Virus record (IMG/VR): IMGVR_UViG_3300028888_000001
Length of the DNA: 64,000 bases
Reading direction: 5' to 3' (one strand)
Origin: a virus
Taxonomy: Duplodnaviria > Caudoviricetes
In this document: positions 6,253 to 62,670 of the stretch, one piece after another
Numbering within the stretch: position 1 is the first letter of the stretch
Layout of the letters: each line of letters opens with the position of its first letter
Notes under the pieces: generated by a model
Databases searched by the model: none
Seen by the model: the letters and a program-made list of their open reading frames with translations, nothing else
Told to the model about the DNA's origin: nothing
Program-made: the position numbers and the translations under genes

Positions 6253-6264
6253 AACAAATAAGTA
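6253..6264 (+). promoter_or_regulatory. Putative late promoter AACA-N6-TA
   Basis: aaca-aataag-taa, with no RBS-bearing ORF before the next terminator. Confidence 0.45.
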
Positions 6265-6357
6265 ATCTAGAGTGGAAAATATTCTAGATTGCCTTCGCTA
6301 CCTATATTATATAAAGATGCATTGTCGGGACAGTACACAAATCATTCTTCGTGCGGA

Positions 6358-6385
6358 GACCATATGGGAGCAATCCCATATGGTC
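6358..6385 (+). terminator. Intrinsic terminator, GGGA-GCAA-TCCC family
   Basis: 12-bp perfect stem followed by a T-rich tail. Confidence 0.85.
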
Positions 6386-6406
6386 ATTCTTTTGCTTTTT
6401 AGCTGA

Positions 6407-6418
6407 AACATTTTATTA
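6407..6418 (+). promoter_or_regulatory. Putative late promoter
   Basis: aaca-ttttat-taa. Confidence 0.7.
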
Positions 6419-6453
6419 AAATAGAAAATAAAAGAAAGGAGTGTAATATAAAG

Positions 6454-7272
6454 ATGATTAATGCCGAATACATTAATAAGGTTGAAAATGTCTATATTGA
6501 TGGGGCTTCATCTGTATTTAATATAGAATCTTTAGATAGATTCGACGGAGATCAATATGATATTTACGATCAAAAAGATTACGCTCGAATGCTTAAAGAT
6601 ATAGAAACTGTATGTAGAACTTCATTTGAATATCGTCAGCTTATTGCTTACTTAAGAAACACTGAAGGGATGAACACTTGTAGCTTCTTAGGTAATGTAA
6701 CTAACGTAGATAATACTAAAGTTAAAATAGAAATACATCATTCCCCATTTACACTATTCTCTATAGTAGAAGCTGTAACTAAGAAAAGACTGCATAATAA
6801 TGAATCTGTAGATATTTTCGATATAAGTAAAGAAGTAATGCTTTTGCATTACATGGGCTACGTTGGATTAATACCATTAAGTGCTACAGTGCATGAGATG
6901 GTTCATAATGGATATATTTTTATACCACTAAATTTGCCTAGAGGAAATTGGGAAAAATTTGTTGAGCTTTACTATGACTATATTTCTCCAGCTGATCTGG
7001 ATGCTTTAGATTCAGCCAGAGAAATGACAACTGAATGGTTAGAGGATATTTCTAAAGAAAATAATATAGTTGATACTCAACAGCAGTTGTTTAATTTACA
7101 CACTACGTACATAAAATATAATAATATAGATATTAATACTAAAGCTCATGATGCTAAAAATGATATTAAAGACTCTATTGAAGAGATTAAAACAAAGAAG
7201 AAAAGCATGATGAAAGTAGACTATAATCATCGTGGAGGCCCAATAACAGACTTTTTAAATGGTTTAAACTGA
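6454..7272 (+). CDS. HNH-like/His-rich protein, paralog of 17624..18259
   Basis: RTSFEY...IEIHH...LSATVHEMVH pattern. Confidence 0.55.
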   Translation: MINAEYINKVENVYIDGASSVFNIESLDRFDGDQYDIYDQKDYARMLKDIETVCRTSFEYRQLIAYLRNTEGMNTCSFLGNVTNVDNTKVKIEIHHSPFTLFSIVEAVTKKRLHNNESVDIFDISKEVMLLHYMGYVGLIPLSATVHEMVHNGYIFIPLNLPRGNWEKFVELYYDYISPADLDALDSAREMTTEWLEDISKENNIVDTQQQLFNLHTTYIKYNNIDINTKAHDAKNDIKDSIEEIKTKKKSMMKVDYNHRGGPITDFLNGLN

Positions 7273-7284
7273 AACATTGTAATA
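7273..7284 (+). promoter_or_regulatory. Putative late promoter
   Basis: aaca-ttgtaa-taa. Confidence 0.7.
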
Positions 7285-7342
7285 AGTATTCAAATGCTTA
7301 TGAGTTTTATTAAAATTTCAAAAATTTTGGAGGAGATAAGAT

Positions 7343-8638
7343 ATGAATATTAAATCAAATCTTCAGCTTATTAGCGAAGCTGCTACTTATGATCTTCAGA
7401 TTAATACTGAAGCTGCAGTGGAATTAGATTCTGTTAAAGAATCTTATGATTGTATCCCTACAGCTATGGGCTTTTGTGTAACTGAAGCTGCTGATGTTGT
7501 TGTTAATAATGTCAATGGCGAATATTTTGTAGAGATGGTTAACCTTAGTCCATTTATGTTAGATAGTGGAATCACTTCTATTTCTAAAGCTCTTAATCTT
7601 GTTGCTGAAGCCAATGGGCTTCCGCCTAGAAGTGTAGGTCTTGTAATTGACTCTCAGGAATCTGTTAATGCTATGCTTGCATCTGCAGATGCAAGATCAA
7701 AAGCCACTGGCAACTATAAGATTCGTGAGAACGCTATTGCAAAAGTGCAGAAGAATATTGCTATTGCTAATAAGCTTATGGCTGAAGGGTTCAATGTAGC
7801 CAAGAAAAGCAAAAATAAAGGAGTTTGTCCTAAATGCGGTAAAGCAGATTGCAAATGTGAATGCGGCGGATCTTGTGGTAAAGGTTGCAATAAGGAATGC
7901 GATGCAAGCAACGTAGTCGGCAAGGCTGCTATTTCTGAAAAGAAAGAATGCGGAGCAAATTGTAAGAAAGAATCATATTCTGTTATTGATTCTGCATACA
8001 TTTTTATAGAGAATGCTTTAGATGGTAGAGACTTTGAATCTCTTACTGAGGCTGAGCAAATTGAACTTATTAAAGAAGCTGCTATCAAGACAAAAGAAGA
8101 TATCAATGAGAAGCTAAGAGTATTAGATTCAAAGAATGCTTCTGCTGAAGATTATGCTTATGCATTCAAGAAAGATGCAGCATCTCAAGCTACTATACTT
8201 GGCACTTCTGCAGGAGCTGCTGTAGCCGCTAGTAAGGCTGCTGATGTTGTCGGTGCAGTTTCAGGTAGCTTTGGTTTAGGCCTTGGAACCCTATATATTG
8301 GCGGTTTGTCACTTGCTCTGCTAACTACTTATGCACTATCTACCATGACTAGAATCTTTAATTGCCCAGGAAGTATTTCTGATAATATTAAATATGCTAA
8401 GGGCGTCCAGAAGCAATTTGAAAAAGCTATCGCTAAGTTCGAAAAGAAGGGTGACGAGAAGATGGCTACCAAATGTAGGGAAGCTAAAGAAAAAGTCGAT
8501 GCTCGTCTTGAAGAGCTTATGAAGAAAGCTGAGGGTAAGTCTATTTCTTATCAGAACACTCATAATGAAAAGGGTGAAAGATACAATAACCAGACCAATA
8601 GTTATAAGAAGACAGGTTCATCTTCATCCAAGAAATAA
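7343..8638 (+). CDS. Probable internal head/ejection protein
   Basis: Late promoter; many hydrophobic-x-E-(A/S) sites; Cys cluster; Gly/Ala-rich hydrophobic segment. Confidence 0.55.
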   Translation: MNIKSNLQLISEAATYDLQINTEAAVELDSVKESYDCIPTAMGFCVTEAADVVVNNVNGEYFVEMVNLSPFMLDSGITSISKALNLVAEANGLPPRSVGLVIDSQESVNAMLASADARSKATGNYKIRENAIAKVQKNIAIANKLMAEGFNVAKKSKNKGVCPKCGKADCKCECGGSCGKGCNKECDASNVVGKAAISEKKECGANCKKESYSVIDSAYIFIENALDGRDFESLTEAEQIELIKEAAIKTKEDINEKLRVLDSKNASAEDYAYAFKKDAASQATILGTSAGAAVAASKAADVVGAVSGSFGLGLGTLYIGGLSLALLTTYALSTMTRIFNCPGSISDNIKYAKGVQKQFEKAIAKFEKKGDEKMATKCREAKEKVDARLEELMKKAEGKSISYQNTHNEKGERYNNQTNSYKKTGSSSSKK

Positions 8639-15232: not shown

Positions 15233-15766
15233 ATGAATATATCTGCAATTGCAGCTGTAGATAAAAATTTTGGATTGGGGTATCAAAATAAGTTATTGTT
15301 TAGAATCAAACAAGACATGCAATTTTTTAAAGAGACCACAATCGGTAATACAGTAATAATGGGTAGAAAAACATTTGAGTCCATGGGCTCAAAACCTTTA
15401 AAAGATAGAGATAATATAGTTATCACTTCAGATATATCTAAGCATACATTAAAAGATAATTTACGTATAACGTCTATGGACATCGTAGAAAATATGCTAA
15501 AGAACGATAAGAGTAACAAAAGATATTTCATTATAGGTGGAGGTTCCATCTATGAACAGCTATTAAAATATTGTGACAGTTTATATTTAACAGTATTTAA
15601 TAAAGAGTATGATGACGTAGATACTTGGTTTCCAAATCCGCTAAAACATGATTTTCATCAGGCTATGATAATTGAAGCAGACTTTGTAGATTTTGTACCA
15701 TACGTTATTTCATTATGGTTAAGAGGTGATCAATATAGAAACTTTAATAAACAGAGTTTCAATTGA
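15233..15766 (+). CDS. folA: Dihydrofolate reductase
   Basis: AAVD..GLG, DMQFFK, IMGRKTFES, PLKDRDNIV, IIGGGSIY, DTWFP motifs. Confidence 0.95.
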   Translation: MNISAIAAVDKNFGLGYQNKLLFRIKQDMQFFKETTIGNTVIMGRKTFESMGSKPLKDRDNIVITSDISKHTLKDNLRITSMDIVENMLKNDKSNKRYFIIGGGSIYEQLLKYCDSLYLTVFNKEYDDVDTWFPNPLKHDFHQAMIIEADFVDFVPYVISLWLRGDQYRNFNKQSFN

Positions 15767-16953: not shown

Positions 16954-17436
16954 TTATTTATTTTTCTGTACTGCATTCAAAGCAGTGCGTTGATTAGTAT
17001 CTGGACTATTGGTTAGATTAAATTCTAATACATAGTTTAATACTATCATATAAATTCTTCTACCGATGAGTTCTCCTATGAAGCTTTCAGAATATACTAT
17101 AGATAGATTATATAATAAAGTCTCTGATAATCTATCTGGTATTTTTTCTGTTAAATTCTCTACGATCCTGGATTCCATTTCTGAATTTATATAGTAGATA
17201 TTTTTAGGCTGAATATTAAATATGATATATTCATCTAGAGCTTCTTTGATAATATAATCAAGATGACCAACAATTTCAGCTTCATCATATTTAGCTCTAT
17301 ATGATTCGTTTATTTTATAATCTACATAATTATTTAAAATTCTAATTAGCCTAACAACCATTACCGCAAATATGATAGCTAATGGTACCCACACCCATCT
17401 AAATGTAATTAAAGAAAAAATAATATTACTTTTCAT
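16954..17436 (-). CDS. Membrane-anchored hypothetical protein
   Basis: N-terminal hydrophobic helix; AGGAGG RBS; late motif at 17465-17476. Confidence 0.75.
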   Translation of the reverse strand: MKSNIIFSLITFRWVWVPLAIIFAVMVVRLIRILNNYVDYKINESYRAKYDEAEIVGHLDYIIKEALDEYIIFNIQPKNIYYINSEMESRIVENLTEKIPDRLSETLLYNLSIVYSESFIGELIGRRIYMIVLNYVLEFNLTNSPDTNQRTALNAVQKNK

Positions 17437-17578
17437 TGCTGCTTATTCCTCCTAAAAGTATTTTTATATAAATGTGATTGAAAAAGTAATAAAATATAGT
17501 AATATATTATATTTATGAAAATAAATATAATATGTAATGTGTGTAGTGTGATTAGAGTTGAATAAATTTTTATTTGAA

Positions 17579-17623: not shown

Positions 17624-18259
17624 TTAATAATTTATAGGACCAGCGTGTTCTTGCCAGTCTAATAGTATCTCTCTTTGTCTTGGGCAATTTAGCCATGTAG
17701 TTTTAAATCCAAATTGTTCTTCCATCTTTAATTGTAATAACCATTTAAATGCTATATCTAACGTAAGTCCATCTCTATACTTCTCTAAAAATAAATATGA
17801 GTTACCATATGCTTGAGAAAGAGAAACAAAAGCTGATGGATCAGCATGTAACGCTTGATGATTGGTTTCTGTTAACATAACTACACTAAGCATATTTAAT
17901 CTATGAGCTTCCTCTAGATCTTCTATAATATCCATAGTGGTTACTTGACCAACAGTATTAAGTCTATGCTCGCATATCATTATAGCTGCCATATTTAATG
18001 TAGGCATAAGATGGTGTAGTTGAATTTCTGTCATCTCGCTATTAACTCCACGCATGAGTTGATCGAAATTCAATCCCTTATTCATTACGTTTGATTTATA
18101 ATCTTTGTAGAAACGTGAACGTCTAAATTGATTTTCAGCAGAATATATAAAATGACTATAGAGTTCTGTATCCATTAAGGTATCTCTAGTTTGCTGAAAC
18201 TGTATAGTCATATAATTATTGGGATCTCCAATAATGGGATTTATATTTAAATTTAGCAT
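17624..18259 (-). CDS. HNH-like/His-rich protein, paralog of 6454..7272
   Basis: RRSRFY...IQLHH...LTETNHQALH pattern; late motif at 18297-18308. Confidence 0.55.
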   Translation of the reverse strand: MLNLNINPIIGDPNNYMTIQFQQTRDTLMDTELYSHFIYSAENQFRRSRFYKDYKSNVMNKGLNFDQLMRGVNSEMTEIQLHHLMPTLNMAAIMICEHRLNTVGQVTTMDIIEDLEEAHRLNMLSVVMLTETNHQALHADPSAFVSLSQAYGNSYLFLEKYRDGLTLDIAFKWLLQLKMEEQFGFKTTWLNCPRQREILLDWQEHAGPINY

Positions 18260-18296
18260 TAGTATATCACCCCGTTCATTATGACCTTATATTTAT

Positions 18297-18333
18297 TAAT
18301 TTCATGTTTTACATTATTAAGCACATTTAATTA
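18297..18333. promoter_or_regulatory. Divergent pair of late promoters
   Basis: Minus strand aaca-tgaaat-taa (18297-18308); plus strand caca-tttaat-taa (18322-18333). Confidence 0.6.
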
Positions 18334-18379
18334 ATAAAGGAAACAAATAATTCATTAAGAGGAGGAAATATGATTAAAA

Positions 18380-18763
18380 ATGATTACTGAACTATTATTT
18401 GGAAAGTGGCTAGATGATTTAAACAAGCGCATTAATCGTAGAGTATCGGTTTCAATTAGAGAGCTTGAAATTGCAAAAGATAAAGCAACTGAATCAATCA
18501 CCACGTCAAATACTATTATGCTTCAATCACTCAATTCAGTAAATGAAGCTAAAGCAGATTTAGATACATTATATAATAAATATAATGAATTATTAGATCA
18601 ACGTAAACAAGAAATAGATTTACAAAAACTTTATGTTTATCTTATACCTAAACTATTGGATTCTTCAGGTATTACACTCCCAGAAAATTTTGATATCACA
18701 AATTATGATGATGCACAAAAACTTTATAAACGATTCTACAATGGCGATTTGTCAGATTATTAA
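18380..18763 (+). CDS. Coiled-coil hypothetical protein
   Basis: GGAGG RBS. Confidence 0.75.
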   Translation: MITELLFGKWLDDLNKRINRRVSVSIRELEIAKDKATESITTSNTIMLQSLNSVNEAKADLDTLYNKYNELLDQRKQEIDLQKLYVYLIPKLLDSSGITLPENFDITNYDDAQKLYKRFYNGDLSDY

Positions 18764-18811: not shown

Positions 18812-18823
18812 CACATTCCTATA
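18812..18823 (+). promoter_or_regulatory. Putative late promoter
   Basis: caca-ttccta-taa. Confidence 0.65.
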
Positions 18824-18874
18824 ATAGCTTTCTATGAAGATATATAATACGGAAGGAGGTTTAATCAAAGTAAT

Positions 18875-21800
18875 ATGATTACTCCAGAAAAAACATATAG
18901 CACAAACCCATTTGTTGATAATATTATTTATTTTGCTAAACTGATGGGTTTAAATTGTACTGTAAAAGATGAAGACGAAGCGTTATCTTTTGAAACTAAA
19001 GAAACGCTACGAGCAGCGGATGTTCTGTTTGCTTGCGTAGATAAAAATAGTCGTTACGAAATGTTTACTTATATACCTAAAGAGATATTAAGTAAATATA
19101 TCGATACTATAAGTAATCTTGACTTATATACTAAAAATAAAATGGCTCTTAGAGCTCATTTTAATACATTTACCAGGATGGAGAGAAGTAAAAAATTAAA
19201 TAAATTAAACTCTCTAGCCCGTACTGTTTATATAGATCATTATGAGATAATGGATAACTATCTATCCAATCTTCCTACTACATGGCTAGAAGATAATCTA
19301 GAGCTATATAATAAGTGTGTTTCTGAAGAAGCCACATACGTTGACCTTTTCAGTGAATTACCTGCTAAGACTGTATTAAGAATACTTAAAAGATATTTAA
19401 ACTCAAGTGACTTTGATAAATTCACTAATATATGGGACGCTAAATCTTTAATATCAGTAGAGGATCTATTAGCGTTAATACCTAAACCGGGTGAATCTAT
19501 ACCAACAGTAAAGCAACTTTTAAAACTCACTGATGATATAAATACAAGAAGAATTCTTCTTAATAAAAATTATATTATAGAAAATCCAGATCAGCTGATA
19601 GATGATACTATTCAATCTTATAGTATTGAACTTGGAAGCTTTATTAGTTTCAGTTCAAATAGTGAATCTGTATATAATGAACTGGATAAGATTTCAAAAG
19701 CAATGCGTGAAGTATTTAAAGATCATTATGAAATGATGAAAGAAAGAAAATACTTCAGTGAGAATGTTAATGATGATCCAGACGTGGAAGATGATGAACC
19801 ATTCTGGATGCAATTTTACCCAGAACAAGAAACTTATGAAAAATGTAAAGCCGGTACAGCAACGTATTATGAATTATATGATTTCTTCCCCAAAGGCAAA
19901 TTAAAAGAATGCTTAACCGAAGTTCTCGGAGATGATGTAGAAACATATAATCTCATGAACAGTGCTGAAACTCTTAAAGGCTATTTAACAGGTGGATATC
20001 GTACAGATGCTACTAGTAAGATTATAGAGCTAAATCAGTTATTATCTGAAATTTATTTAAACAACTATCAGCTCTATATGAATACAGATATCTATTATAA
20101 ATGCCAAGACGGAAGAATAGACTTTTATGGGTTGATGGAATATTTACCGCCTGAAACGATAAAATCTATTATATTAACTGAATTTGATGAGGTTACAAAT
20201 CTAGATATCTACTCTACCAATAAAGCTATGCTAGATGATTATCTAGATTCGTTAACAGATACAGTAGATTTAGTTTATGATGATGGTACTAGAGCTACTG
20301 TAACCAGAGGTGAATATATAAAATATCACATCAATAAAGATATGCAAACTTGGTATCCAAATAATCATGTAGAGAAGAATAATTACTATAGAGCATTGAT
20401 TGGATTGCCACCTTTGGACAGCAGTGGAAATCCGTGTATTGATACTTTGGTTCATACATATGATGAAACTACTGACTCATATATTGAGTTTGGTGATAGG
20501 TTCACCTCTCAGTGTCCTACAGATATTTATCCTGATTATCATTGGAGACAAGAATTTTATAAATATGATTCTTACGACGTTGCTGTATTGGAAGAGTCTG
20601 GAATATTGGCTGACTATATGGCAGCATGTGGACAAACCACAAATAAATTACGCTACAGGTATTTAAATTATCTGGGTGACTATGCTCTTAATATATATGA
20701 ATGCCGAAAAGCAATGAATTTTCAGCTTATTGGTATGCCTACAGTAACAGATTCTATAATTAAAAGAAAGTTTGTAGACACATTCGAACTTAATAGAGAT
20801 TATATTGTTCGTGCTGTATATTCAGATGCGTATAAATTCCAGTCTGATTACTTTAATAAATTTATAATTATATTCATTATCATTAATACTATAATGGATA
20901 TGCTTACTGGAATACCAGATTTAATTATAAATAAAGACGTATTCGATGCTAGATGTATTAGATATTTATTCGAATCATATGGCATACCATATTATGCTGA
21001 AATTCCTGTGAAATATCAGCAAGCTATGCTTAAAAATCTTAATACTCTCATCAAGTATAAATCTAGTACCAAAAACATGGTAGACATCTGTAGTCTATTT
21101 GGTTTTAGAGACGTTAGAGTATTCGGATATTACTTAATGAAAGATCAAAATACTGATAAATATACTGGAGATTTTATTTTATCAGAAAATAACGATATTA
21201 ATTATAGTCCAGATAATCTTTATGTGCTTGATAAGACTACTGGAACTATAACAGATGTTTCCGGTAGAAGATTTTCTAAGCTTTCAGAATACAGACATTT
21301 TATAGAAGATTATTATTTTAAGACTATAACTGTGAAAAATAAAGATGGTTCTATAGAGAAGAAAAAGATTATCAACAACGAGAGAGAATTATTTGTATAC
21401 GACAGTGCTTATAACGAAATGATTCCTCTTAAAGATAGTTCATATTTCACACGCATTAAAGCAAACCAAGAACCATCAGCAAGTCTTAAATTCATCAAAG
21501 TCCCTGTAGATGAAACTCTAACAAACTATAAGCAAGATAGCGATTATATTATAGACTATGATGAAATCACTACAGGCGATGATGTATGGGATGGTGGATT
21601 AGACCACGAATACTTAAAAAAGAAAATTATTGATTATGAATTCAATGCTGTTAAATCTAAATATATATCCATAGAGACCACTACAGATATGACAGAATTA
21701 GCTTTTCAAATATCATATTTTTATAATATGCTATTTGATGGATATTATTCCGAAGAGGGGCTAAAACTAGATATTCCATATCTTCGTTCAGGACATAAAT

Positions 21801-28509: not shown

Positions 28510-28549
28510 AACTAAACCTCCTAAGGTTAAATTAGTTTCGAACTGAATT

Positions 28550-28593
28550 TATCCAAATGTTCCGGGTTAAGGCTTTTTATTGACATTTTGATA
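28550..28593. promoter_or_regulatory. Divergent pair of late promoters
   Basis: Minus strand aaca-tttgga-taa; plus strand gaca-ttttga-taa. Confidence 0.7.
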
Positions 28594-28622
28594 AAGGTCC
28601 ATATATAAGGTGGTGATTTTAT

Positions 28623-29292: not shown

Positions 29293-29841
29293 ATGAACGA
29301 TTCTGGTATTTTGTATTTAATTGTAGAAATAATTATTCTTGTTGGGTCTTATGTGGTTGGTAGATATATTATACCAACTGTAAGTTATTCAGAAACTATA
29401 TCAGATGTGACAAAAAAATTTAATCTTATAGTAGAATATGCTGATAAATTTGTATCATGGGCTAAATATTTCATGAAGAGCTATACAGGCTCAGAGAAAA
29501 TGGATGCTGTTGTTAACGAGTTGGTTAAGATAACTGAAAAATATGATATCAATATATCTAGGACTGAAATTATTGCTATAGCTCAAAAAGCTTATGACAA
29601 TATGATGATAGGTATTGATAAAGCAGAGAATGCTAAGAAGATAGCTGACGCTGCTGAAAATAAAAATGAAGCTAAAATTGTTATTCCTAATAATATAGTT
29701 CAAACAACACCTTTAGCAGACTATAAAAGTAATGAGTTAACTAGCACTACAGCAATACCAAATATCAATAATCAAACTAAAATCACCTCTGATGATCCAA
29801 TGACAGCAGTTTATTTAGCTGAGCATGGCGAAAGTTTATAA
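29293..29841 (+). CDS. Holin, LL-H-like
   Basis: N-terminal TM helix plus FVSWA...GSEKMDAV...IAIAQKAY pattern. Confidence 0.6.
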   Translation: MNDSGILYLIVEIIILVGSYVVGRYIIPTVSYSETISDVTKKFNLIVEYADKFVSWAKYFMKSYTGSEKMDAVVNELVKITEKYDINISRTEIIAIAQKAYDNMMIGIDKAENAKKIADAAENKNEAKIVIPNNIVQTTPLADYKSNELTSTTAIPNINNQTKITSDDPMTAVYLAEHGESL

Positions 29842-30402: not shown

Positions 30403-30414
30403 AACATTCTTATA
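30403..30414 (+). promoter_or_regulatory. Putative late promoter of the tail-fibre operon
   Basis: aaca-ttctta-taa. Confidence 0.7.
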
Positions 30415-30446
30415 ATTACAAAAAATACAGAAGGAGGATAAATTAT

Positions 30447-31025: not shown

Positions 31026-31027
31026 AG

Positions 31028-42831: not shown

Positions 42832-42843
42832 AACATTCGATTA
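42832..42843 (+). promoter_or_regulatory. Putative late promoter
   Basis: aaca-ttcgat-taa. Confidence 0.7.
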
Positions 42844-42870
42844 ATAAATATTATAGGAGGGCTCAACCCA

Positions 42871-43716: not shown

Positions 43717-43728
43717 GACATTTGAATA
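43717..43728 (+). promoter_or_regulatory. Putative late promoter
   Basis: gaca-tttgaa-taa. Confidence 0.7.
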
Positions 43729-43758
43729 ATTATAACAATTATTCTGGAGGTTTATAAT

Positions 43759-45034: not shown

Positions 45035-46423
45035 TTAATTTAAATGACCAATACGGCTAGACGTTCTAAAGTTGTCAGGATTATTCCATCCATCAGCAAA
45101 ATTATGATGTATACGTACATTATTCACATAGCCCATATCGATGTATACGCCAATAATAAATCCTGGAGTGGTACATTTTTCACTTATAGAAACTGTATAA
45201 GTGTCCCAATCAACGTCATAATCTTTATATGACGGATCATTGAAAATAATGAAGTCTATAAATAATGAAGGATTAAGAGCAACAGATTTTGTATACTCTA
45301 TTATAGCCATAAGCTCAGTATTTTCAAACAAAGGCCTAATATCTATATCTAAAGCTTTTCGCTTACCAAGATCTTTCATTTCTACAATGTAATCTGTTTT
45401 TATTACTCTAGACCATCCACTTTCATTAGCTTCAGGAATATCTGCTTTAGTGGCTTTAAATAGTACAATTGCAGTCTCATCTTGTACAGTATCACCAGCA
45501 ATTATTTCTTGAGGCTCTTGAGAATAATAAGTATAACAATATGGAGCTGTCATCTCTATCTCTACAGCAAAATCACAAATAAAAGCCATGTGTTCATGAT
45601 CTATCCTATCGCCACTCTCATCACCTGTTGGAAATTCTGATCTTATATGAACGGTACAATTTTCTATACGCATGAAATACTCAAAATTTCCAGTAGCGTT
45701 AACACGTTTATATAAAAATGGAACCATAGAATGAGAATTTAAATATCGTAACATTTCATCAGGATCTCTAGGCCCAGAAAAATCATCTGTTGCTATACCA
45801 TTATCAAATGCCATTTGAGCAATAATCTTTTTAGGTACATGAATATCAAGCGGTATATATTGTGTTTCAGTTAAACCAGCTCTATGCCTATATTTGATAT
45901 ATTCCATATCATCTAGCATCTGGCCTTTAGTGTCGTTTCTAATTCTATATGTGAAATTCATCATTATAGATTTAAACTGCACTGCAAGATATAGACATTT
46001 TTCTGGACGTTGGTCTCTAAATATAGTTCCCTCAAAACGAGATCTTCTTAAATATCCGCCAAGCTCAAGATTTGTATCTATAAAATTTCTGTTATAGTTC
46101 ATATCTATAGTTGGCACTATAGCCAACACAGGGTTGGTCCTTTTAAGCTGATCTTGAAGTTTTGAAAACATTCTGAACTGGTCAAAAGATTTAGATCCAT
46201 CTACATATATAGAATTAAATTTATCTCTAGGCCATTTATCTAGAAACCAGTCTCTAGCAAATTCTGTACACACAGCATAAGCGTTATACTGTGAAGGAAG
46301 CATAACACTTGATCTTAATATTCTTGGTTTCTTGGTATTATATATTTCATGAGGATCTAATATTCTCATACCTTGGGCTCTAGGATTTATTATTTTACCA
46401 AAGTCTTTAAGCGTTCCTTCCAT
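45035..46423 (-). CDS. Probable virion structural protein
   Basis: 462 aa; late motif gaca-tttgat-taa at 46460-46471. Confidence 0.55.
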   Translation of the reverse strand: MEGTLKDFGKIINPRAQGMRILDPHEIYNTKKPRILRSSVMLPSQYNAYAVCTEFARDWFLDKWPRDKFNSIYVDGSKSFDQFRMFSKLQDQLKRTNPVLAIVPTIDMNYNRNFIDTNLELGGYLRRSRFEGTIFRDQRPEKCLYLAVQFKSIMMNFTYRIRNDTKGQMLDDMEYIKYRHRAGLTETQYIPLDIHVPKKIIAQMAFDNGIATDDFSGPRDPDEMLRYLNSHSMVPFLYKRVNATGNFEYFMRIENCTVHIRSEFPTGDESGDRIDHEHMAFICDFAVEIEMTAPYCYTYYSQEPQEIIAGDTVQDETAIVLFKATKADIPEANESGWSRVIKTDYIVEMKDLGKRKALDIDIRPLFENTELMAIIEYTKSVALNPSLFIDFIIFNDPSYKDYDVDWDTYTVSISEKCTTPGFIIGVYIDMGYVNNVRIHHNFADGWNNPDNFRTSSRIGHLN

Positions 46424-46496
46424 AAAAAATAAACCTCCATGTATCTAATTTCTATAAATTAATCAAATGTCCAGCATATATCAAATAAAAAAATAA

Positions 46497-48223: not shown

Positions 48224-48625
48224 CGTACCCCTATACACTACGAAAGTAATGTAGATTGATTAGATCCTAGGTGGCTTAGACTATATCTAAATCCACTGCT
48301 TAATAAAAGCGTTGGGATAATTAGCGCTTCGATTTAAACGGACTTATTTGCTGCAATGCCGTACTATAGTAATCACTCTATAGCTCTACTCCCATTTAGG
48401 GATAGTCGTTGAACCTTCTATACTGTTACAGTATAGCTTGGCTGCTGATTGCATATTGTTAGCAGGCTTTAGCACCATTATTATACAATGGCTTTTATTT
48501 CAGCATGGCCCAATCTTTAACTTGTTTCTGTCTTTCGACTCCTTATAGGCATAAAGATATTAATACATCCCAGCAATTCACTAATTTTTAACGCTCCTAT
48601 TCCTAGAAACGTGATCCTGATTTTG
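48224..48625 (-). mobile_element. Group I self-splicing intron, 402 nt, no ORF
   Basis: P AAUUGCUGGGA (48568-78), Q AAUCAGCAGCC (48440-50), R GUUCAACGACUA (48403-14), S AGAUAUAGUC (48279-88). P1 UGAUU|C:GGAUCA has U.G at the 5' splice site; P3, P7 and P10 pair; terminal G present. Confidence 0.95.
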
Positions 48626-49952
48626 AATCAGCAGCAAGCGGCTTTAATATCAATAGAGATATACTCATAGTGTAGTTCATGTTAATCCCTATACATCTAC
48701 ACCGGAGAATACCACCATACGATATGGTCGGATTGCGGTTAATTAGAACGGGGAGTCCCCCGCTATCTTTGATTAAGCCGTCTATAATATCATATATTGT
48801 TTTGTCGTATCCATTAATCTGACACTTATACCATCTCTTATATGCTATAGAGTAAGAGATATTTTGTGTCTTAACGAGTATATTTATAATAACTTGCTGT
48901 AATAATTCCATTAAACACTGAAATGGAAGTTTTATCTCATCACAAAATAAATATGGATCTTGTCGTATCACGCTCCTACTAGTAAATGAATATCTACCAC
49001 CTATACTTGCACGAATATCACCTTTCTTTTTGGCCATGATAGATTTCAATTCTTCATATATTGCATTATACTGGAATTGAATATCGTATAAGTATTGGAC
49101 TTTTCCTTTAAGCTTTTGATCCATTCTAAGTTTATCTTGATTAACCTTATAAACTAGAGTGGATAACATCTGATAGTTCTCATTACAAGACTGATATTTC
49201 AAAGATCCATTATCCAGTACAGACGGTCTCAACAATGCAGAGAATACCGGTATACTATGAGTAAATGTGATTTTCTCATTTTCTATAAGATCATCATAGT
49301 AGATTTTCTTAGCTGGATATTTAGCATAATAATAGTCTAGTATCTCTCGATACCGCTCTTTAAATGCTAGTATACCGATACCCTTGAAAGGTTCGTCTTT
49401 CTTATTAGATACTACCTCTATATATTTACCATTGGAGTCTACTGTTATCTCTGGCTCTATAATGCGGTTTAATCTCGCTGCACCGATAAAGCCTTCAAGA
49501 GTTCTATATATATTTGGATGGATAATCCAGTATTTATCTTTTAGTACTAGCCATCCAAATATAGAAACGTCATCGTCATAATACTTGACTACAGTACCAC
49601 ATGCTGGACATATCTCTCCATGCATTATAGATCCTCTAGTCATTCCACATTTACAGCGATATTTACCAGAGAAAGAATCTATATCCGATATAGTAGATCC
49701 AAATCTCTGACTGAATATGCCATTTTGATATTTGATATCATTCTTAATTCCCTTTGGGGCAGAGATGATAAAATTAGGGCCAGATTTAAGATCATCAATT
49801 CTTGTCTGGTCCATATCTAGCCTGACTAACCGTGTGCTATATGTATACTTATCTGAATGGGGATATGTATACGTTGTTTTGACATTAAGCGTTCCTGGAA
49901 CTGCTGTAGTTCCAGCTCTTACATTTGGTGTCGTTTTTATTTTTGTTGCCAT
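48626..49952 (-). CDS. rpoC: Multisubunit RNA polymerase beta' N-terminal subunit (probably the non-virion RNAP), exon 1
   Basis: GIFSQRFG, CKCG...CPAC Zn finger, KKGDIR..GGRYSFTSRSVI, NRNPTI, PLAAD|. The spliced product is 518 aa. Confidence 0.92.
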
Positions 49953-50035
49953 CTTTTCCTCCTTAAAGATTTTTAAAAACTACAGATAATACCAAATTTC
50001 TATCTTGAATCTAATACTACCTGTAGCCTAAATAT

Positions 50036-50045
50036 ATAATATATT
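50036..50045 (-). promoter_or_regulatory. Putative early promoter of the RNAP gene
   Basis: aatatattat on the minus strand, followed by a leader stem-loop. Confidence 0.55.
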
Positions 50046-50087: not shown

Positions 50088-50693
50088 TTATGACTCTTCT
50101 TTAAGAATCTCAAGATGCCTGAATTTCGATAGCTTCTTAAGAGAACTTATATCTGTTCTTCTAATGACATATTCTGGAGCTTGCACATCTATCAAAAACT
50201 CTTTAACAGAATCATATGCTGTTATCTCACCAGTGGTGTTATTTCTAACTTTAATAGATTTTGTAGAATTTTTGGCATAAACACCATTATCTCTCTGGAA
50301 CTTAATATTATCGTCTTTTGTGAGCTGTAATAGATTATCTATAGAATTGTTCCTGGAGTCTAAATCTAAATGAGCAATGCAACAATTAGTATCTAATGGT
50401 TGATTACCCCATGCTGAATAGACTAGCCTAGAAACTGGATAATGTCTCTTTTGAGCATCAGAAATTCTTACTGCTCCATATTTGTCAATCTCAGGTTTGA
50501 TAATAGAGAATCTATTTGGGCTTCTAGTATTCTCATCAAAAATAATTTTAGCAATCTCTCCATTCTTAGATGAATAATAATCGTCTACAATTGTTTCTCT
50601 AAATTCTCTTCCTGTACCATCTGTGTATGATTTTGTAAAATCATAAATTTCTGTTGGCGTTGGCTCCCCTAAAATGTCGTTAATACAAGACAT
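50088..50693 (-). CDS. Free-standing HNH homing endonuclease (I-HmuI-like: HNH plus NUMOD1-like domain)
   Basis: SKNGEI...DKYG...VSRLVYSAW...HLDLDSRNNSIDNLLQLTKDDN, then TTGEITAYDSVKE. Confidence 0.8.
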   Translation of the reverse strand: MSCINDILGEPTPTEIYDFTKSYTDGTGREFRETIVDDYYSSKNGEIAKIIFDENTRSPNRFSIIKPEIDKYGAVRISDAQKRHYPVSRLVYSAWGNQPLDTNCCIAHLDLDSRNNSIDNLLQLTKDDNIKFQRDNGVYAKNSTKSIKVRNNTTGEITAYDSVKEFLIDVQAPEYVIRRTDISSLKKLSKFRHLEILKEES

Positions 50694-50774
50694 TTTCTGC
50701 TCCTCCTTAAATACATAAGTAATTTATATTTATGTATATGGGTGTGTATTATTTTACCATGAGAGTTATACAAA

Positions 50775-54466: not shown

Positions 54467-54591
54467 ATCGCAGTCCTCCTAAAAGTATATATTATATAAA
54501 GAGAAGCCATAAATGACTTCTCCTCATACACGTTTATAATATATAACCAAATTAGATTTTGGTTTATTATTTTGTACAGTTATTTTTATTT

Positions 54592-57310: not shown

Positions 57311-60300
57311 TTAAATTATTGCTCTTATCATGTCTTCAGTTAGCATACTAGAAGAAGAAACAGATATAGATCTCTTACCGGTTAGATTATTATAGAAATA
57401 ATTACCGTCAAAGTCTTCTTTAATAGAAATAATTTCTTCTCCATTTAGTCTATATTTATTAACAAACTTAGGCTTTTTAGTTATAGCACTTTCAATAAAA
57501 GCAGCTCTAAAAGTTTTATATCCAAGACAATCTATAATGCTGTCTCTTAACGTTACCATCTCAGACATCACTTTCTGCTCAATCAAATTAAATTCAATCT
57601 TCCTGAAGTTTGGATCAAACTCAATCTGGTCTTCTGTAAGCATAAGCTTATCTGTTAATGCTGTGTATATATTAAATACTTTTGAGCCTTCTTTATAGTA
57701 TCTGTTGAGTCTATCTATATAAGCATAGTTACCTATAAACTCATAAGCCTCTATGATATTAAGATCTTTGGTTGGCTCTGTTTTAAGAGCACCATCGTCA
57801 TCTACAACCAAGCATCTATCTAAATTCATATCATTAGTATATACATAATGATCGCTAAGTAATTTTTCAGGATGTCTTGGATCACCAACTTTAATTAAAA
57901 ATGGTTTATGAATTCCTATAACTGGATTTATTGAAGCAAGAGAATTTTCTTTTAATTTTATAGAAGAATATAAAATATTATTCTCAAGCTTTAATGGATA
58001 TTGAACTGCCCATTCATATGCTCCAGATTCAGTAACATTAATTACACCAACCGGAACAAGCTTAGGCGGTGTCTTAGGTTCTGTAAATGCTCTAGCGTTA
58101 GTAAACACATACTCTGTGATTTCTAACGTATCATCATTAAACATAGTTCTTTCAATCATGCATCTAATACAATCATCTATGGATTTATAATATAGCTCTT
58201 CGTCCACTTCATTCGGATATTTCTTTTCAGAGATATACCACCATGTGATAGCACTTATAGGAACAGATTTAAATCCCTCATCATTTACAGCAATGAGAAT
58301 ATTATCATCAGCATTTTCAGGTATGCTTATTTGATTACCAAATATAATATTTGGAGTCTCTTCTTTATCGAACCTATAAGCATTTAAACCTACAGAAATT
58401 GCAGCTTCTACATTTTCTTGTTTATCATCAAAGAATATTGCTCTTGATGGATCAATCTCATATTTATTTAAAAATATAGTATACATTTCTCTATTTGGTT
58501 TTTGAATTTCTCCAAGCTCAAATGAGAAAACTCCTCCATCAAATTTATCAAGTAAAGGTCTAAAGAATGGCTCCTCAACCTCAAATGAGAACTTAGTCCA
58601 ATTTGATAGATAATATAGCTTATAACCTTTAGATCTAAGCATGTCAAGCATATCATATACGTAAGGATATACATACATAGCTTCTCTAAATGTGGCTAAG
58701 ATACTGTCTACATATGGTTTAATATGGTCAGGAGCAACATCATTTAATTTTACTCTAATTTGTTGTAAATTAAGCTGTTGCGTTTCTGAGCTATTGGCGC
58801 TATAGAAGCATTCTTTATCTATAAGGTCTTTAATCTCTTCACATAATTCATTTGGTATATCTGGATTATCGATTAAGGCTTTTAAACTATGCGCATCCAC
58901 AAGCACATTGCCCATATCGAATATTATAGTATCAACAGAATCTGGAATGATACTAATAATAGCGCCCTCAGATAAATACTTATAACACTGAGTTGTTTCT
59001 GGTATTTTAATATCATATTTCTTGGCTGCCGCTTTGATTCTCTTAGCTAAGCGTTTCTTCTTATCTTCTTGAGCATGACCAAAAAGATGTATAGCTGATT
59101 TAACATGCTTAGCTGAATCTAATGGAAATTTTCTATCTTCCGGAATTCCAAAAGCTGAATCTGGCAACTCTGAACGCTTAGTTTCTAATATGGCAGATTC
59201 TTCTTTAAGCATTAAATCAACAAAGTATTTTCTAAATTTCTTTAATTTAGATTCTCCCTTAAACCACATTCCTGGATCAAGAAATTCTGGTTGCTTATCT
59301 CTCTTGCAAGCTCTATAAAGAGAAACGACCATAGAAGTTCCCTTAATATATACAGCATAATTTTTAAGATCTTCAGGTTTAAGGAATAAATAAATCCAAA
59401 TTCCTTCAAGAACAAATTTAGTGTTTTTATGCTTCTTAGCATACTCTATAGTATAATTAACAAAATCATTTATTAACGATTCTTCATAATTAATAGTCTT
59501 AAATTCTTTTGAATCATTTAATTCGTCTGCAGTGAGATAGTATTTCTTATATTTTGGTTCTGTAAAGAAATTAGACACAAGTGGGCCAAATTCATTTTTA
59601 AAATCTTCTATAGTATGATATTCTTTATTCCAGATGATATCATCAAGTTCAACCACTACAGCTTTATTATTATATTTTCTACCCATAGTAGATTTACCAG
59701 AACCAGATTGTCCTGTAATAAAGCATATATTAGTCAAACCTTTATCGAATTTTTCTTTATTATAATAAATATCATCTTTATTAAAGATATAACCTTCAGA
59801 TACATTATTAGAAGCTTCCAAATATAACGCTGCTTCATCAGATTGTGTTTTTTCTTGAATTATATCATTTACTTGCTCAAGCTTAATAGTTTTATTATCC
59901 TCGACATTTTTAAGAATATAATTCGATGAGCCCATACCGAGCCATTTCATATACTCGATCTGATGTGTGCCACCAAGCTTAGAAATTTGCTCCATTAAAT
60001 CTTTATTTCCAGGAGCATTTCTAATAAAATCTAATGACGCTTGTTCTATGGCAAGAATATCCGTAGATACTAAAACGCCTATATTGGGAATAGTACTTTT
60101 AGGAGCATCTTTATCACAGTCGCACATTGTAGATAGATTTTGTAATACGTTTACATAAACTATTCTATTGTCAAACATCGATTCTATAGCAGAAGCAGAT
60201 TCTACTAAACGCTCTAAGAATAATGGGCCTCGAATCCAATCTTCACCATGAATTTGAATTTTTCCTTTAGCGCCTGTAGGAATACCCATTCCGATATTCT

Positions 60301-62623
60301 TTACAGCGCCACCATATCCAGCAACGCCGTGACCTTTAAAATGAGTATAGACGATCATACTATCATAATTCTTTATATGAGCACCCACATTAATTTCTGA
60401 TAAATGTCTTCCTGGGGTGACGCATGATTCGTAACCAGGTTTTCCATTAGCTAGAGCTCTAAGTTCTTGATCTATTAGATATTTTTTAGGAACGCTAATA
60501 TCTATACCACCATCAGCATCCAGTATATCGATATATCCAAAATCAAAGCCATGTTCTCTAGCAGTATTTATATGATCTTGAGTTGTTCCTCTAGTAGAGC
60601 CCTCATAAGCAGTATTAGAATCAACTAAAGCACCGTTAGTGTATTTAACTAAGTCTTTAAGAAGATTAGGATTTAAGAAATTCTTATTGCCAGATTCGCC
60701 AAAATGTAATTTTATGGCAATTCTGTCTCCAAGATAATCTTGGAATAATGAAACCATATATGCTATAGTTTTAGAATCAATACTTGAAGAATAATACACT
60801 ATAGGCTTTTCTTTAGGATTATATGCTTCTTTAAGAAGTTTAATCCTATCTAGTATAGCAGATTCTCCATAACCAGTGTTAAAATTCCACTCGTTATCTT
60901 TAACAAGCTCCTCTTTATGATCTATCAGATATTTTAACGTTACTGGCTTATTGTTATAAAACATCGGATATACGTTTATATTTCTTTTTCCATCTGTGGT
61001 GTTATATTTTCTGATATTATGTATATGCCCATGAATATTCCACCAATCTTCTGGATACGTATCCATATTTACCGGTCTATGAGTAAACAGATAATTCCTC
61101 CAAGTAAAGTCTTCTAATACATAATCAAATCCACACTTTGTAAAGTAATCTTGTCCTAGCATCTTATCATGATTACCAAGAACAAAAATCTTATGACCAG
61201 CAATAGAAGCCATAAACTCTTGAGACTTTTTCTGATCTTCTTGGTTAGCATATCTAAAACTCAAATCACCAAGATATATAAACACATCTTCAGGCTTTAT
61301 ATTTTGCTTGCACCACTTAAGAATTTCTTGCGTGTTTACATAATTAGCCTCGTGCTTATAATGATTTTTGAAGAAATGCCAATCTGACGTTAGGAATATA
61401 CGATCTAACGGAGTGTTATCTAATAATGAAGTGATATCCGGTTTATATGATTCCATATCCGGCAATTCAAATTCTATTTCAGAAGATGACTTTTTAGTAT
61501 TCTTCAATGGATCATAAATATTGCCAGCATAAAGCTCGTCGTCTTCTATATCTAAACCAACATCAAAGGCTTCTAAATTAATAGATGCCTTATTTTTTTC
61601 TCCGTGCAACTTTAAGTCATCTCCTTTACTGTAAAATGCTCGCTCTAATGATTCATAATCTTTATTCATTAAATCATATACGATATTTTGAGTAAATAGT
61701 ACACTCCTCATCCCAATAAGGTTAGCCATTTCTATGCTAGGCTCTTGGTCATCTATAAGAATAGTATTATTTATACTGAGATTGTATCTATTCAATAGTC
61801 TATTTAAAAATTTATAATTTGGTTTGCTCATATTTTCTTTGAAAGAGAATAATCCTCCATCAAAATATTTATCTAAGAATTTAAATAAACCATTCATTCT
61901 ACAAATTTCATATGAGCTTCGAGTCCAGTTTGATAAATAATATAGTTTATAACCTTTAGACTTAAGGTTTTCCAGTAATGGTATAGTATAATCGAATAAT
62001 GTTTTGCTTCCAGAAGCAAAATCAAATAAGCTCTTTATAAACTCATAACTAAAACCATAAGAGTCCATAGCTTTAATATAGTTTCTAAGTGCTATATCAT
62101 ATGGTATACTATCATTATTATATACTATCTTATAATATATACTAAGATATTCTCTAAGCTGTTCTTCTGTAATTTTTAATTTTCTTAATAGAGACTCTGG
62201 ATTAGCTCTATTCTTGATTAAAACTCCACCTAGATCGAATATGATATTATAAATTCTATTATCATACTCATCCATAAAAGATTCATCGATTACATTTCTA
62301 TATTCCCATTCAAAGCCAGTTGTTCCATTATCAACAAATTTTATTTTCCCAAATTTCTTGACTCTTATAGTATCTATAAATTTAACTTTACCTTCGGTCA
62401 TACTATTTGGAAAGATTTTATTTTTGTCTATATCATAAAGAATATAAACAAATAATTCATCACCAACATAAATATTTCTGTATTCTTTTATAGCAAGCTC
62501 GACTGAAGTAAATAAATAATTATTACAATCTGTTGGCGATAATGTTAGATTTACACTATCTTTTGAAGATAGATAATAATATCTAAAAGTATCTACCCTA
62601 GATTCATGTGTGTTGGATAACAT
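57311..62623 (-). CDS. Multi-enzyme polyprotein: HAD / metallophosphoesterase / DUF362 / P-loop kinase / DUF6582-like / HAD
   Basis: IFDLGGVL; SDWH, GDLS, GNHD, HGHIH; KLHFGE, HFKGH..GGAVKN, CDC; GQSGSGKST; RSELPDSAFGIPEDRKFPL; IFDMGNVL. Confidence 0.85.
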   Translation of the reverse strand: MLSNTHESRVDTFRYYYLSSKDSVNLTLSPTDCNNYLFTSVELAIKEYRNIYVGDELFVYILYDIDKNKIFPNSMTEGKVKFIDTIRVKKFGKIKFVDNGTTGFEWEYRNVIDESFMDEYDNRIYNIIFDLGGVLIKNRANPESLLRKLKITEEQLREYLSIYYKIVYNNDSIPYDIALRNYIKAMDSYGFSYEFIKSLFDFASGSKTLFDYTIPLLENLKSKGYKLYYLSNWTRSSYEICRMNGLFKFLDKYFDGGLFSFKENMSKPNYKFLNRLLNRYNLSINNTILIDDQEPSIEMANLIGMRSVLFTQNIVYDLMNKDYESLERAFYSKGDDLKLHGEKNKASINLEAFDVGLDIEDDELYAGNIYDPLKNTKKSSSEIEFELPDMESYKPDITSLLDNTPLDRIFLTSDWHFFKNHYKHEANYVNTQEILKWCKQNIKPEDVFIYLGDLSFRYANQEDQKKSQEFMASIAGHKIFVLGNHDKMLGQDYFTKCGFDYVLEDFTWRNYLFTHRPVNMDTYPEDWWNIHGHIHNIRKYNTTDGKRNINVYPMFYNNKPVTLKYLIDHKEELVKDNEWNFNTGYGESAILDRIKLLKEAYNPKEKPIVYYSSSIDSKTIAYMVSLFQDYLGDRIAIKLHFGESGNKNFLNPNLLKDLVKYTNGALVDSNTAYEGSTRGTTQDHINTAREHGFDFGYIDILDADGGIDISVPKKYLIDQELRALANGKPGYESCVTPGRHLSEINVGAHIKNYDSMIVYTHFKGHGVAGYGGAVKNIGMGIPTGAKGKIQIHGEDWIRGPLFLERLVESASAIESMFDNRIVYVNVLQNLSTMCDCDKDAPKSTIPNIGVLVSTDILAIEQASLDFIRNAPGNKDLMEQISKLGGTHQIEYMKWLGMGSSNYILKNVEDNKTIKLEQVNDIIQEKTQSDEAALYLEASNNVSEGYIFNKDDIYYNKEKFDKGLTNICFITGQSGSGKSTMGRKYNNKAVVVELDDIIWNKEYHTIEDFKNEFGPLVSNFFTEPKYKKYYLTADELNDSKEFKTINYEESLINDFVNYTIEYAKKHKNTKFVLEGIWIYLFLKPEDLKNYAVYIKGTSMVVSLYRACKRDKQPEFLDPGMWFKGESKLKKFRKYFVDLMLKEESAILETKRSELPDSAFGIPEDRKFPLDSAKHVKSAIHLFGHAQEDKKKRLAKRIKAAAKKYDIKIPETTQCYKYLSEGAIISIIPDSVDTIIFDMGNVLVDAHSLKALIDNPDIPNELCEEIKDLIDKECFYSANSSETQQLNLQQIRVKLNDVAPDHIKPYVDSILATFREAMYVYPYVYDMLDMLRSKGYKLYYLSNWTKFSFEVEEPFFRPLLDKFDGGVFSFELGEIQKPNREMYTIFLNKYEIDPSRAIFFDDKQENVEAAISVGLNAYRFDKEETPNIIFGNQISIPENADDNILIAVNDEGFKSVPISAITWWYISEKKYPNEVDEELYYKSIDDCIRCMIERTMFNDDTLEITEYVFTNARAFTEPKTPPKLVPVGVINVTESGAYEWAVQYPLKLENNILYSSIKLKENSLASINPVIGIHKPFLIKVGDPRHPEKLLSDHYVYTNDMNLDRCLVVDDDGALKTEPTKDLNIIEAYEFIGNYAYIDRLNRYYKEGSKVFNIYTALTDKLMLTEDQIEFDPNFRKIEFNLIEQKVMSEMVTLRDSIIDCLGYKTFRAAFIESAITKKPKFVNKYRLNGEEIISIKEDFDGNYFYNNLTGKRSISVSSSSMLTEDMIRAII

Positions 62624-62658
62624 AATAGTCTCCTTATCTACAGTTATAGTTTAAAATT

Positions 62659-62670
62659 TATTTTAATGTC
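62659..62670 (-). promoter_or_regulatory. Putative late promoter of the polyprotein gene
   Basis: gaca-ttaaaa-taa on the minus strand. Confidence 0.65.

Follow-up and report, generated by a model that had tools for sequence, protein, structure and literature searches.

An AR9-like candidate late promoter, ACA-N6-TAA, in a jumbo phage that appears to make thymine DNA

The stretch of DNA analyzed here (the window, 64,000 nucleotides in full) lies on the minus strand of one virus record of 313,331 bp (IMGVR_UViG_3300028888_000001; Duplodnaviria, Caudoviricetes), at bases 201541-265540. The record has a 127-bp end overlap and a G+C content of 32.5%. Its intergenic regions carry a recurring motif, ACA-N6-TAA, usually in the form ACAtt-N4-TAA, that we read as the late promoter of the phage's own non-virion RNA polymerase (nvRNAP) acting on thymine DNA, a reading to which we assign a probability of roughly 70%. 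A crude gene call gave 275 genes and an intergenic share of 13.4% of the genome. When 20 kb of the window was compared with GenBank phages by megablast, there were zero matches, and in that collection the phage has no close cultured relative. With tblastn of the predicted proteins against Bacillus phage AR9, for which record KU878088 served as the reference, 49 proteins were found to be common to the two phages and their order to be partly conserved.

Promoter-like sites and their placement

The late promoter-like sites of the window are given below with their strand and the gene or open reading frame (ORF) that each precedes, distances being in nucleotides (nt).

6408..6419, plus strand: late promoter-like site ACATTTTATTAA, 35 nt 5' of ORF 6454-7272
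7274..7285, plus strand: late promoter-like site ACATTGTAATAA, 58 nt 5' of ORF 7343-8638
17464..17475, minus strand: late promoter-like site ACATTTATATAA, 28 nt 5' of ORF 16954-17436(-)
18296..18307, minus strand: late promoter-like one-T variant ACATGAAATTAA, 5' of ORF 17624-18259(-)
18323..18334, plus strand: late promoter-like site ACATTTAATTAA, 46 nt 5' of ORF 18380-18763 and divergent with 18296-18307
18813..18824, plus strand: late promoter-like site ACATTCCTATAA, just past a terminator-like hairpin and 51 nt 5' of gene 18875-25639
28549..28560, minus strand: late promoter-like site ACATTTGGATAA, 40 nt 5' of ORF 27085-28509(-)
28583..28594, plus strand: late promoter-like site ACATTTTGATAA, 29 nt 5' of ORF 28623-29234
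30404..30415, plus strand: late promoter-like site ACATTCTTATAA, heading block 30447-42823 (proteins of 1687 and 1467 residues)
42833..42844, plus strand: late promoter-like site ACATTCGATTAA, 27 nt 5' of ORF 42871-43656
43718..43729, plus strand: late promoter-like site ACATTTGAATAA, 30 nt 5' of ORF 43759-44997
46459..46470, minus strand: late promoter-like site ACATTTGATTAA, 36 nt 5' of ORF 45035-46423(-)
50724..50735, minus strand: relaxed late site ACATAAATATAA, 31 nt 5' of HNH endonuclease gene 50088-50693(-)
54564..54575, minus strand: weaker core-only late site, 98 nt from its gene
62658..62669, minus strand: late promoter-like site ACATTAAAATAA, 35 nt 5' of gene 57311-62623(-), which encodes a 1770-residue protein
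63407..63418, minus strand: relaxed late site ACAAAATATTAA with no T at -7/-6, 28 nt 5' of ORF 62720-63379(-)

The gene at 18875-25639 encodes a virion protein of 2254 residues, a homologue of AR9 g260 and a PHROG virion structural protein. A holin gene (29293-29841, PF09682) comes after ORF 28623-29234 and belongs to the same operon as the site at 28583. A preliminary description of this DNA had listed 16 sites, 13 of which are strict or one-T forms of the motif; its nine plus-strand positions are all exact, and those on the minus strand lie within one base or give the opposite end of the site. The remaining three deviate. At 6253 only the core is matched, and weakly, with the next gene 189 nt away. 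The variant at 50735(-) agrees with the relaxed core as ACATAAATATAA, and that at 52869(-) fits no form of the motif. Two core-only sites, 63407-63418(-) and the weaker 54564-54575(-), are additions to that list.

By whole-window count the motif is unremarkable, with 13 copies of ACATT-N4-TAA against 8.4 +/- 2.8 in shuffled sequence and at least 13 copies in 8 of 100 shuffles. Since the raw count is not significant, placement had to be tested. Intergenic DNA holds 12 of the 13 window copies and 36 of the 39 copies in the 313-kb genome (binomial p ~2e-28), and nearly all copies are followed at 22-62 nt by a start codon in the same orientation that has a strong ribosome site of the AGGAGG type. 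When the spacer was changed to N3 or N5, the intergenic share was that of the background (4/38 and 4/33). Within 202 oriented upstream regions ACATT-N4-TAA was present 33 times, where 300 dinucleotide shuffles gave 1.7 +/- 1.3 (maximum 7), and ACA-N6-TAA 78 times, where the shuffles gave 13.2 +/- 3.6. The comparison with shuffled DNA upstream of genes, which the preliminary description had put forward as a possible refutation, thus gave a clear enrichment.

Of the 222 copies of ACA-N6-TAA in the genome, intergenic DNA holds 100 (binomial p ~1e-30), and 75 are followed by a co-oriented gene at no more than 100 nt. Control words were intergenic at background levels, whether the spacer was changed (N5 48/331, N7 37/298; binomial p 0.3-0.7) or the end of the motif (TA[CGT] 67/551); at +1 TA alone is enriched, ACA-N6-TG being intergenic in 30 of 445 copies. 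Altering any of A, C, A, T(-1), A(+1) or A(+2) brought the intergenic share to background, or in one case near to it. Altering either T at -7/-6 left about half of the copies intergenic (19/40 and 19/37), and for this reason ACA-N6-TAA is taken as the core. The added TT noted earlier therefore stands as a preference at -7/-6 and not as a rule. There is also a weak preference for A at -3/-2. At -11 the 74 sites have A in 28, C in 13, G in 18 and T in 15, which is near background, so that this position is unconstrained; it had rightly been called relaxed, but in this phage it takes any base and not only A, G or C.

Upstream regions without the late motif carry another word, taaTTaTATATTATA-N4-TG, and TATATATTATA is intergenic in 30 of its 34 copies. 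In the AR9 record 33 early promoters are annotated, and their consensus is AAATATATATTAT-N5-TGA, the same word with the same spacing as in this phage. Directly 5' of three nvRNAP genes, the gp226 homologue and the gene for the catalytic subunit of DNA polymerase the early motif is present, as it is 5' of gyrase A, SbcC and RNase H, and it heads operons that hold helicases, primase, GroEL, thymidylate synthase (ThyA), dUTPase and dihydrofolate reductase (DHFR). With temporal labels that are AR9 annotations carried to homologues, 17 of the 20 homologues of AR9 genes for the virion, head, portal, sheath, protease, terminase and virion RNA polymerase (vRNAP) have the late motif in front of them, compared with 6 of the 26 genes for replication, the nvRNAP or nucleotide metabolism (Fisher p 7e-5). 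Of the three virion-class exceptions, two (the first terminase exon and one of the vRNAP genes) are preceded at 28-35 nt by a site of the relaxed core. The earlier statement that the sites precede mostly structural or lysis genes could be checked only through the AR9 homologues genome-wide and one holin. The early motif comes close to being a palindrome, and it occurs together with a late motif in many intergenic regions between divergent genes, for example at window 54488-54543.

The k-mer-enriched intergenic word CCTAATTC/GAATTAGG was rejected as a promoter, being an 88-bp shufflon junction. The strongest non-promoter intergenic repeat consists of palindromic GAATTAGGC-N5-GCCTAATTC units, which are located outside the window at genome positions 27700, 34553, 126775, 266899, 272885 and 296395.

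RNA polymerase subunits, recognition pocket and nucleotide metabolism

The following further features of the window concern the early promoters, the polymerase and the supply of thymidylate.

1825..1833, plus strand: early (virion-RNA-polymerase type) promoter-like site TAATTATATATTATA, heading a block with ThyA and dUTPase
3122..4075, plus strand: thymidylate synthase ThyA (PF00303, 217 bits)
5805..6245, plus strand: trimeric dUTPase, near B. subtilis YncF and SPbeta YosS
15233..15766, plus strand: dihydrofolate reductase DHFR (PF00186, 143 bits)
48603..49952, minus strand: gene for the nvRNAP beta' N-terminal subunit, homologue of AR9 g270
50035..50043, minus strand: early promoter-like site, 5' of the nvRNAP beta'-N gene

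By tblastn, homologues of all four split nvRNAP core subunits of AR9 (g105, g089, g270 and g154) and of four vRNAP subunits are present. A query with AR9 gp226 matched one protein (phmmer E 9e-9, exon 1), whose gene is flanked by the primase and g227 homologues, the arrangement also seen in AR9. A profile built from 27 homologues matched AR9 gp226 over residues 11-459 of 464 (E 2e-34) and phiR1-37 g245 (E 8e-43), and among all PDB sequences it matched only 7S01_A, 7UM0 and 7UM1 (7S01_A at E 3e-29). The AlphaFold model of an intact relative of 67% identity (pLDDT, the predicted local distance difference test score, 82.7) retrieved 7S01_A first (E 4e-16), followed by 7UM0_A (5e-13) and then phiKZ gp68 (8QUE_B, Foldseek E 2e-5). 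The gp226-like sigma subunit that the preliminary description had suggested looking for is thus represented by a syntenic, full-length homologue.

The gene of this homologue is broken after residue ~325 by a 367-nt insertion (genome 79968-80336, minus strand) at ...SEYD / RYEARL.... The relative of 67% identity has one continuous gene of 521 codons that aligns to both flanks, and the insertion is lacking in the intact relatives L012, L013 and L015; in several other relatives the gp226-type reading frame stops at the same point. The insertion has a strong predicted fold (-98.6 kcal/mol) and carries the strings GATATAGTC and GAAGTTCATAAGAGAACTGC, the second of which also occurs between the terminase exons and three times at 172-174 kb of the genome. 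Judged from these GATATAGTC ... GAAGTTCATAAGAGAACTGC core strings and from the intact relatives, the insertion probably belongs to a group I-type intron family. A search with Rfam at E up to 0.1 of the 3.5-kb locus that holds the gp226 homologue gave no family, nor did one of the window at gathering thresholds. The GATATAGTC core string is also found at window ~48287 (genome 217254), just past the end of the nvRNAP beta'-N reading frame. In tblastx with AR9 g270, the beta'-N gene matches only the part upstream of AR9's own intron, and it may continue as a second exon after an intron.

A host-type sigma factor was considered and rejected, as no Sigma70_r2 domain was found in the whole genome and the sole r4-like helix-turn-helix is sub-threshold. 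The latter is in a 97-residue ORF (genome 79053-79346, minus strand) directly 3' of the gp226 homologue, with a Sigma70_r4-like score of 21.8 bits against a cut-off of 24.1; judging by sequence, its product might be a small DNA-binding partner or simply a generic helix-turn-helix protein.

In AR9 and PBS1 the late promoter is 5'-A(-11)ACA-N6-T-A/G(+1) and the nvRNAP holoenzyme consists of gp105, gp089, gp270 and gp154 with gp226 (PMC5312081, PMC5449584, PMC9209446). This promoter is read on the template strand, where uracils at -11 and -10 are a strict requirement (PMC7598289, PMC9209446). Analyzed by the same method as our phage, AR9's own AACA-N6-T[AG] is intergenic in 106 of 412 copies, versus 26/469 and 37/455 for spacer controls. 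The two phages share ACA at -10 to -8, the strict 6-nt spacer, TA at -1/+1 and the position ahead of virion genes; a homologous four-subunit core with a gp226-type fifth subunit; an almost identical early (vRNAP) promoter, TATATATTAT-N5-TG; and conserved beta-N R363, gp226 W208 and finger Y263. The AR9-type kinship proposed in the preliminary description is therefore well supported, since the split polymerases, the gp226 homologue, the early promoter and the late-motif geometry all agree.

There are differences from AR9 as well. The A at -11 (template U) is required in AR9 and unconstrained here; the predicted +1 is always A here, with TG at background, and A or G in AR9; A is required at +2 here, where AR9 has T or A; and the preference for T at -7/-6 has no counterpart in AR9. 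The signature SDxVIWxYL of the gp226 2.1bis helix has been lost. Finally, this phage has ThyA, DHFR, dUTPase and thymidylate kinase (Tmk), whereas AR9, searched for the first three, is without them. Given this thymidylate gene set, the template base is probably T rather than U.

Among GenBank phages the protein nearest to the subunit of the clade is phiR1-37 g245 (25.8% identity, tblastn E 8e-18), and phiR1-37 has the gene order GroEL - g244 - subunit - primase in common with it. However, phiR1-37 keeps the AR9 helix motif (SDQVIWRYL), and ThyA, ThyX and dUTPase were not found in it. The thymine-DNA jumbo phage phiKZ resembles our phage in having a five-subunit nvRNAP whose fifth subunit, gp68, is a structural relative. 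It differs in its late promoter, T(-3)ATG(+1), with no -10-like ACA (PMC7598289, PMC7618050), in the far greater distance of gp68 and in the phage nucleus that phiKZ-type phages form. In gene content and in both promoter types, this phage is AR9-like and not phiKZ-like.

The pocket that reads the -10 base is known from AR9, in which gp226 I207 and beta-N R363 hold the uracil wedged between them, the side chain of V206 is predicted to clash with a 5-methyl group and the V206G substitution leads to acceptance of thymine; Y210 is stacked against the -9 guanine, and this base bonds through its Watson-Crick edge to the main chain of F261 and Y263 (PMC9209446). AR9 (SDVVIWTYL) and phiR1-37 (SDQVIWRYL) have SDxVIWxYL in common, while our phage reads DQLLWEKN, and in the clade only the W of this signature is kept (25 of 27). 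The V206 column contains G in 5 members, V in 5, I in 4, a gap in 4, T in 3, K in 3, L in 2 and M in 1, with Leu in this phage. The Y210 column is mainly M or K (K in this phage), and five residues past the W the clade has a new invariant Ile and a near-invariant Arg. Finger Y263, the P235-K236 pair and beta-N R363 are still conserved, which suggests that the parts reading the -9 G and stacking on -10 are retained and that the methyl-excluding part is less constrained. A smaller residue at V206, considered as the adaptation to thymine, was ruled out for this phage, which has Leu; the position is unconstrained in the clade, and the members with Val there encode ThyX, dUTPase or both.

ThyA, dUTPase and DHFR, all three of which the preliminary description had named, were confirmed by profile and homology matches. 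ThyA is canonical, with 321 bits against NF002495 (an NCBIfam equivalog, cut-off 327) and B. subtilis ThyA as its nearest structure (1B02, E 1e-45). The dUTPase matches B. subtilis YncF (E 5e-45) and SPbeta YosS (E 1e-42) and has all catalytic motifs, among them the catalytic Asp motif, motif III and the C-terminal motif V, RGGLGSTG. Thymidylate kinase and deoxycytidylate (dCMP) deaminase are encoded outside the window. Homologues of the AR9 Ugi and g151 nucleotidase were not found in the genome (best phmmer E 0.29 and 0.026), which is weak evidence because such proteins are small and fast-evolving.

AR9 and phiR1-37 are the sole cultured phage lineages matched by the gp226-type family; both have been found experimentally to have uracil DNA, and in neither were ThyA, ThyX or dUTPase found. 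Iyer et al. state that uracil DNA requires the phage to have no thymidylate synthase or Thy1 and no dUTPase (PMC7824862). From the thymidylate gene set and its contrast with the uracil phages we infer, on good grounds, that the DNA of this phage is most likely ordinary thymine DNA. Gene content and the comparison with the uracil-DNA lineages point towards a probably uracil-independent system such as the preliminary description had proposed.

The proposed promoter system and its alternatives

If the motif is the nvRNAP late promoter, the injected virion RNA polymerase would read the early promoters (TTATATATTATA-N4-TG), from which the genes for replication, for the four split beta/beta' nvRNAP subunits, for the gp226-like subunit and for the thymidylate pathway would be expressed. 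The five-subunit nvRNAP would then recognize ACA at -10 to -8 and TAA at -1 to +2, with transcripts predicted to start at the first A of TAA and to have leaders of 20-60 nt before virion, holin and other late genes. By homology with AR9, a pocket made up of gp226 and beta-N would probably read the ACA from the template strand, as TGT. Early genes would make deoxythymidine triphosphate and destroy deoxyuridine triphosphate, giving thymine DNA, and in that case the pocket must accept a 5-methyl pyrimidine at -10.

Several observations weigh against this scheme. The late motif is also present on six non-structural genes, and twelve upstream regions carry both motifs; the latter resemble the 'continuously expressed' genes of AR9, which have both promoter types. 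For most late gene products PHROGs and Pfam gave no family. A full-length gp226 homologue is obtained only when the 367-nt insertion is removed, and Rfam sees no intron there. The pocket alignment is at ~22-24% identity, Thr is aligned with beta-N K375, the residue bonding the -10 base in AR9, and the Leu at the V206 position is larger, so that a model in which a smaller side chain admits the methyl group fails for this phage. Lastly, the stretch between ORF 2376-3035 and ThyA (window 3036-3121) contains a G+C-rich hairpin with a T run and no recognizable promoter after the hairpin. As this hairpin stands between the early promoter and ThyA, early expression of ThyA is assumed from operon position; it may come about by read-through from the early promoter at 1825.

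The best of the alternatives, though one that we consider unlikely, accepts the motif as the nvRNAP late promoter and holds that the virion DNA is wholly or partly uracil or a modified pyrimidine, with ThyA, DHFR and dUTPase serving another purpose or being off or inhibited once replication starts. PBS2-type phages neutralize the host dUTPase by means of an inhibitor, which speaks for such a scheme. In addition, every cultured phage with a detectable gp226-type subunit has uracil DNA, namely AR9/PBS1 with their relatives and phiR1-37 (PMC7598289), Val is found at the V206 position in five clade members and the bulky Leu in this phage, and enzymes of the thymidylate synthase family can make other C5-modified pyrimidines (PMC7824862). 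However, ThyA here is canonical, is nearest to that of B. subtilis and is paired with DHFR; since DHFR is needed only if dihydrofolate is produced, this pairing indicates true synthesis of deoxythymidine monophosphate (dTMP). The dUTPase with its full set of catalytic motifs, the additional thymidylate kinase and the lack of a detected Ugi or g151 nucleotidase homologue argue in the same direction. Moreover, in 24 of 26 large relatives ThyA or ThyX has been kept through non-orthologous replacement, which points to selection for a supply of dTMP. Of the Val-bearing members, those with large contigs have dUTPase, and most of them also ThyX.

It is less probable still that the motif is no promoter at all and instead marks a place where RNA is processed, an element acting on translation or stability, or a site bound by a phage regulator. 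The position of the motif would also be that of a 5' leader if transcription began further upstream, and there are the twelve upstream regions with both motifs. Against this, the geometry equals that of the mapped promoter of the homologous enzyme (PMC5312081 and PMC5449584, as relayed in PMC7598289), the cognate specificity subunit is encoded, and the sites often follow terminator-like hairpins and head divergent pairs (18296/18323 and 28549/28583). Most early operons, furthermore, are without the motif, and no secondary structure is tied to it.

Reading of the motif by a host RNA polymerase redirected by an unrecognized phage factor (compare T4 gp55/gp33 and SPO1 gp33/34) is very improbable. 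In its favour, many large phages use such redirection, TAA with the preceding A/T-rich stretch sometimes reads TATAAT, and a weak Sigma70_r4-like helix-turn-helix is present in the small ORF beside the gp226 homologue. On the other side, Sigma70_r2 was not found in the genome, the motif has no -35 element, ACA is only 6 nt from TAA, two complete RNA polymerases are encoded, as in the host-polymerase-independent AR9 and phiKZ (PMC7598289), and the motif persists in relatives along with the gp226 homologue.

Relatives and implications for the phage lineage

More than 60 IMG/VR contigs of 17-290 kb carry a gp226 homologue at 28-68% identity. In relatives of the phage ACA-N6-TAA is likewise enriched in intergenic DNA. 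It is intergenic in 70 of 151 copies in close relatives, 24 of 72 in middle and 19 of 72 in far relatives, with spacer controls at background. Fetching the late loci of distant relatives through a single capsid-protein query reached only close ones, and two whole, more distant genomes were fetched in its place; in these, 48 of 111 copies (with 6% intergenic DNA) and 90 of 281 (10%) are intergenic. The orthologue of the virion gene g165 of AR9 retains the motif at its 5' side, with changes in the spacer bases. The relatives are biased towards A at -11 (38/70, 23/46 and 52/81), and AACA-N6-TAA is the commoner form among them. As relatives that also make thymidylate keep this bias, the free -11 position is particular to this phage.

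Twenty-six of the relatives are contigs of >200 kb. ThyA is encoded in 8 of these and ThyX in 16, never both in one, and the remaining 2 have dUTPase. The mutual exclusion of ThyA and ThyX in the clade is a case of non-orthologous replacement inside one phage lineage. With somewhat less confidence than for the single phage, we lean towards the view that an uncultured clade of 200-310-kb jumbo phages from gut, rumen and environmental samples uses a gp226-dependent system on thymine DNA, with a remodelled recognition helix in which the uracil-selecting valine has not been conserved and an I-R-G motif is new. If thymine DNA is clade-wide, the uracil dependence of AR9 would be a lineage-specific specialization and not a property of the system.

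Reviews have deemed the late promoters of such phages unpredictable by bioinformatics, and in the MarsHill study a de novo search for the late promoter failed. Fraser et al. knew of only twelve gp226 homologues, the close ones being from deoxyuridine-DNA phages, and in the literature consulted here we found no description of a thymidylate-making clade with gp226-type subunits. The AR9 nvRNAP is the textbook example of a multisubunit RNA polymerase that reads a -10-like element on the template strand and needs deoxyuridine, and this need has been proposed as the means by which a phage without a nucleus avoids transcribing host DNA. Should our reading be true, the reading of uracil would be an add-on and not the basis of the mechanism, and discrimination of self from host would rest elsewhere, maybe on the longer consensus, which holds ~11-12 bits against AR9's shorter word.

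The clade would then be a natural panel of -10 pocket variants in which acceptance or rejection of the 5-methyl group could be tested, including members with Gly where V206G was engineered. The present phage would add a shift of specificity to this panel, in which -11 has been freed and T at -7/-6 and A at +2 have been gained. With late promoters predictable in this clade, temporal gene classes could be assigned in genomes that are uncultured.

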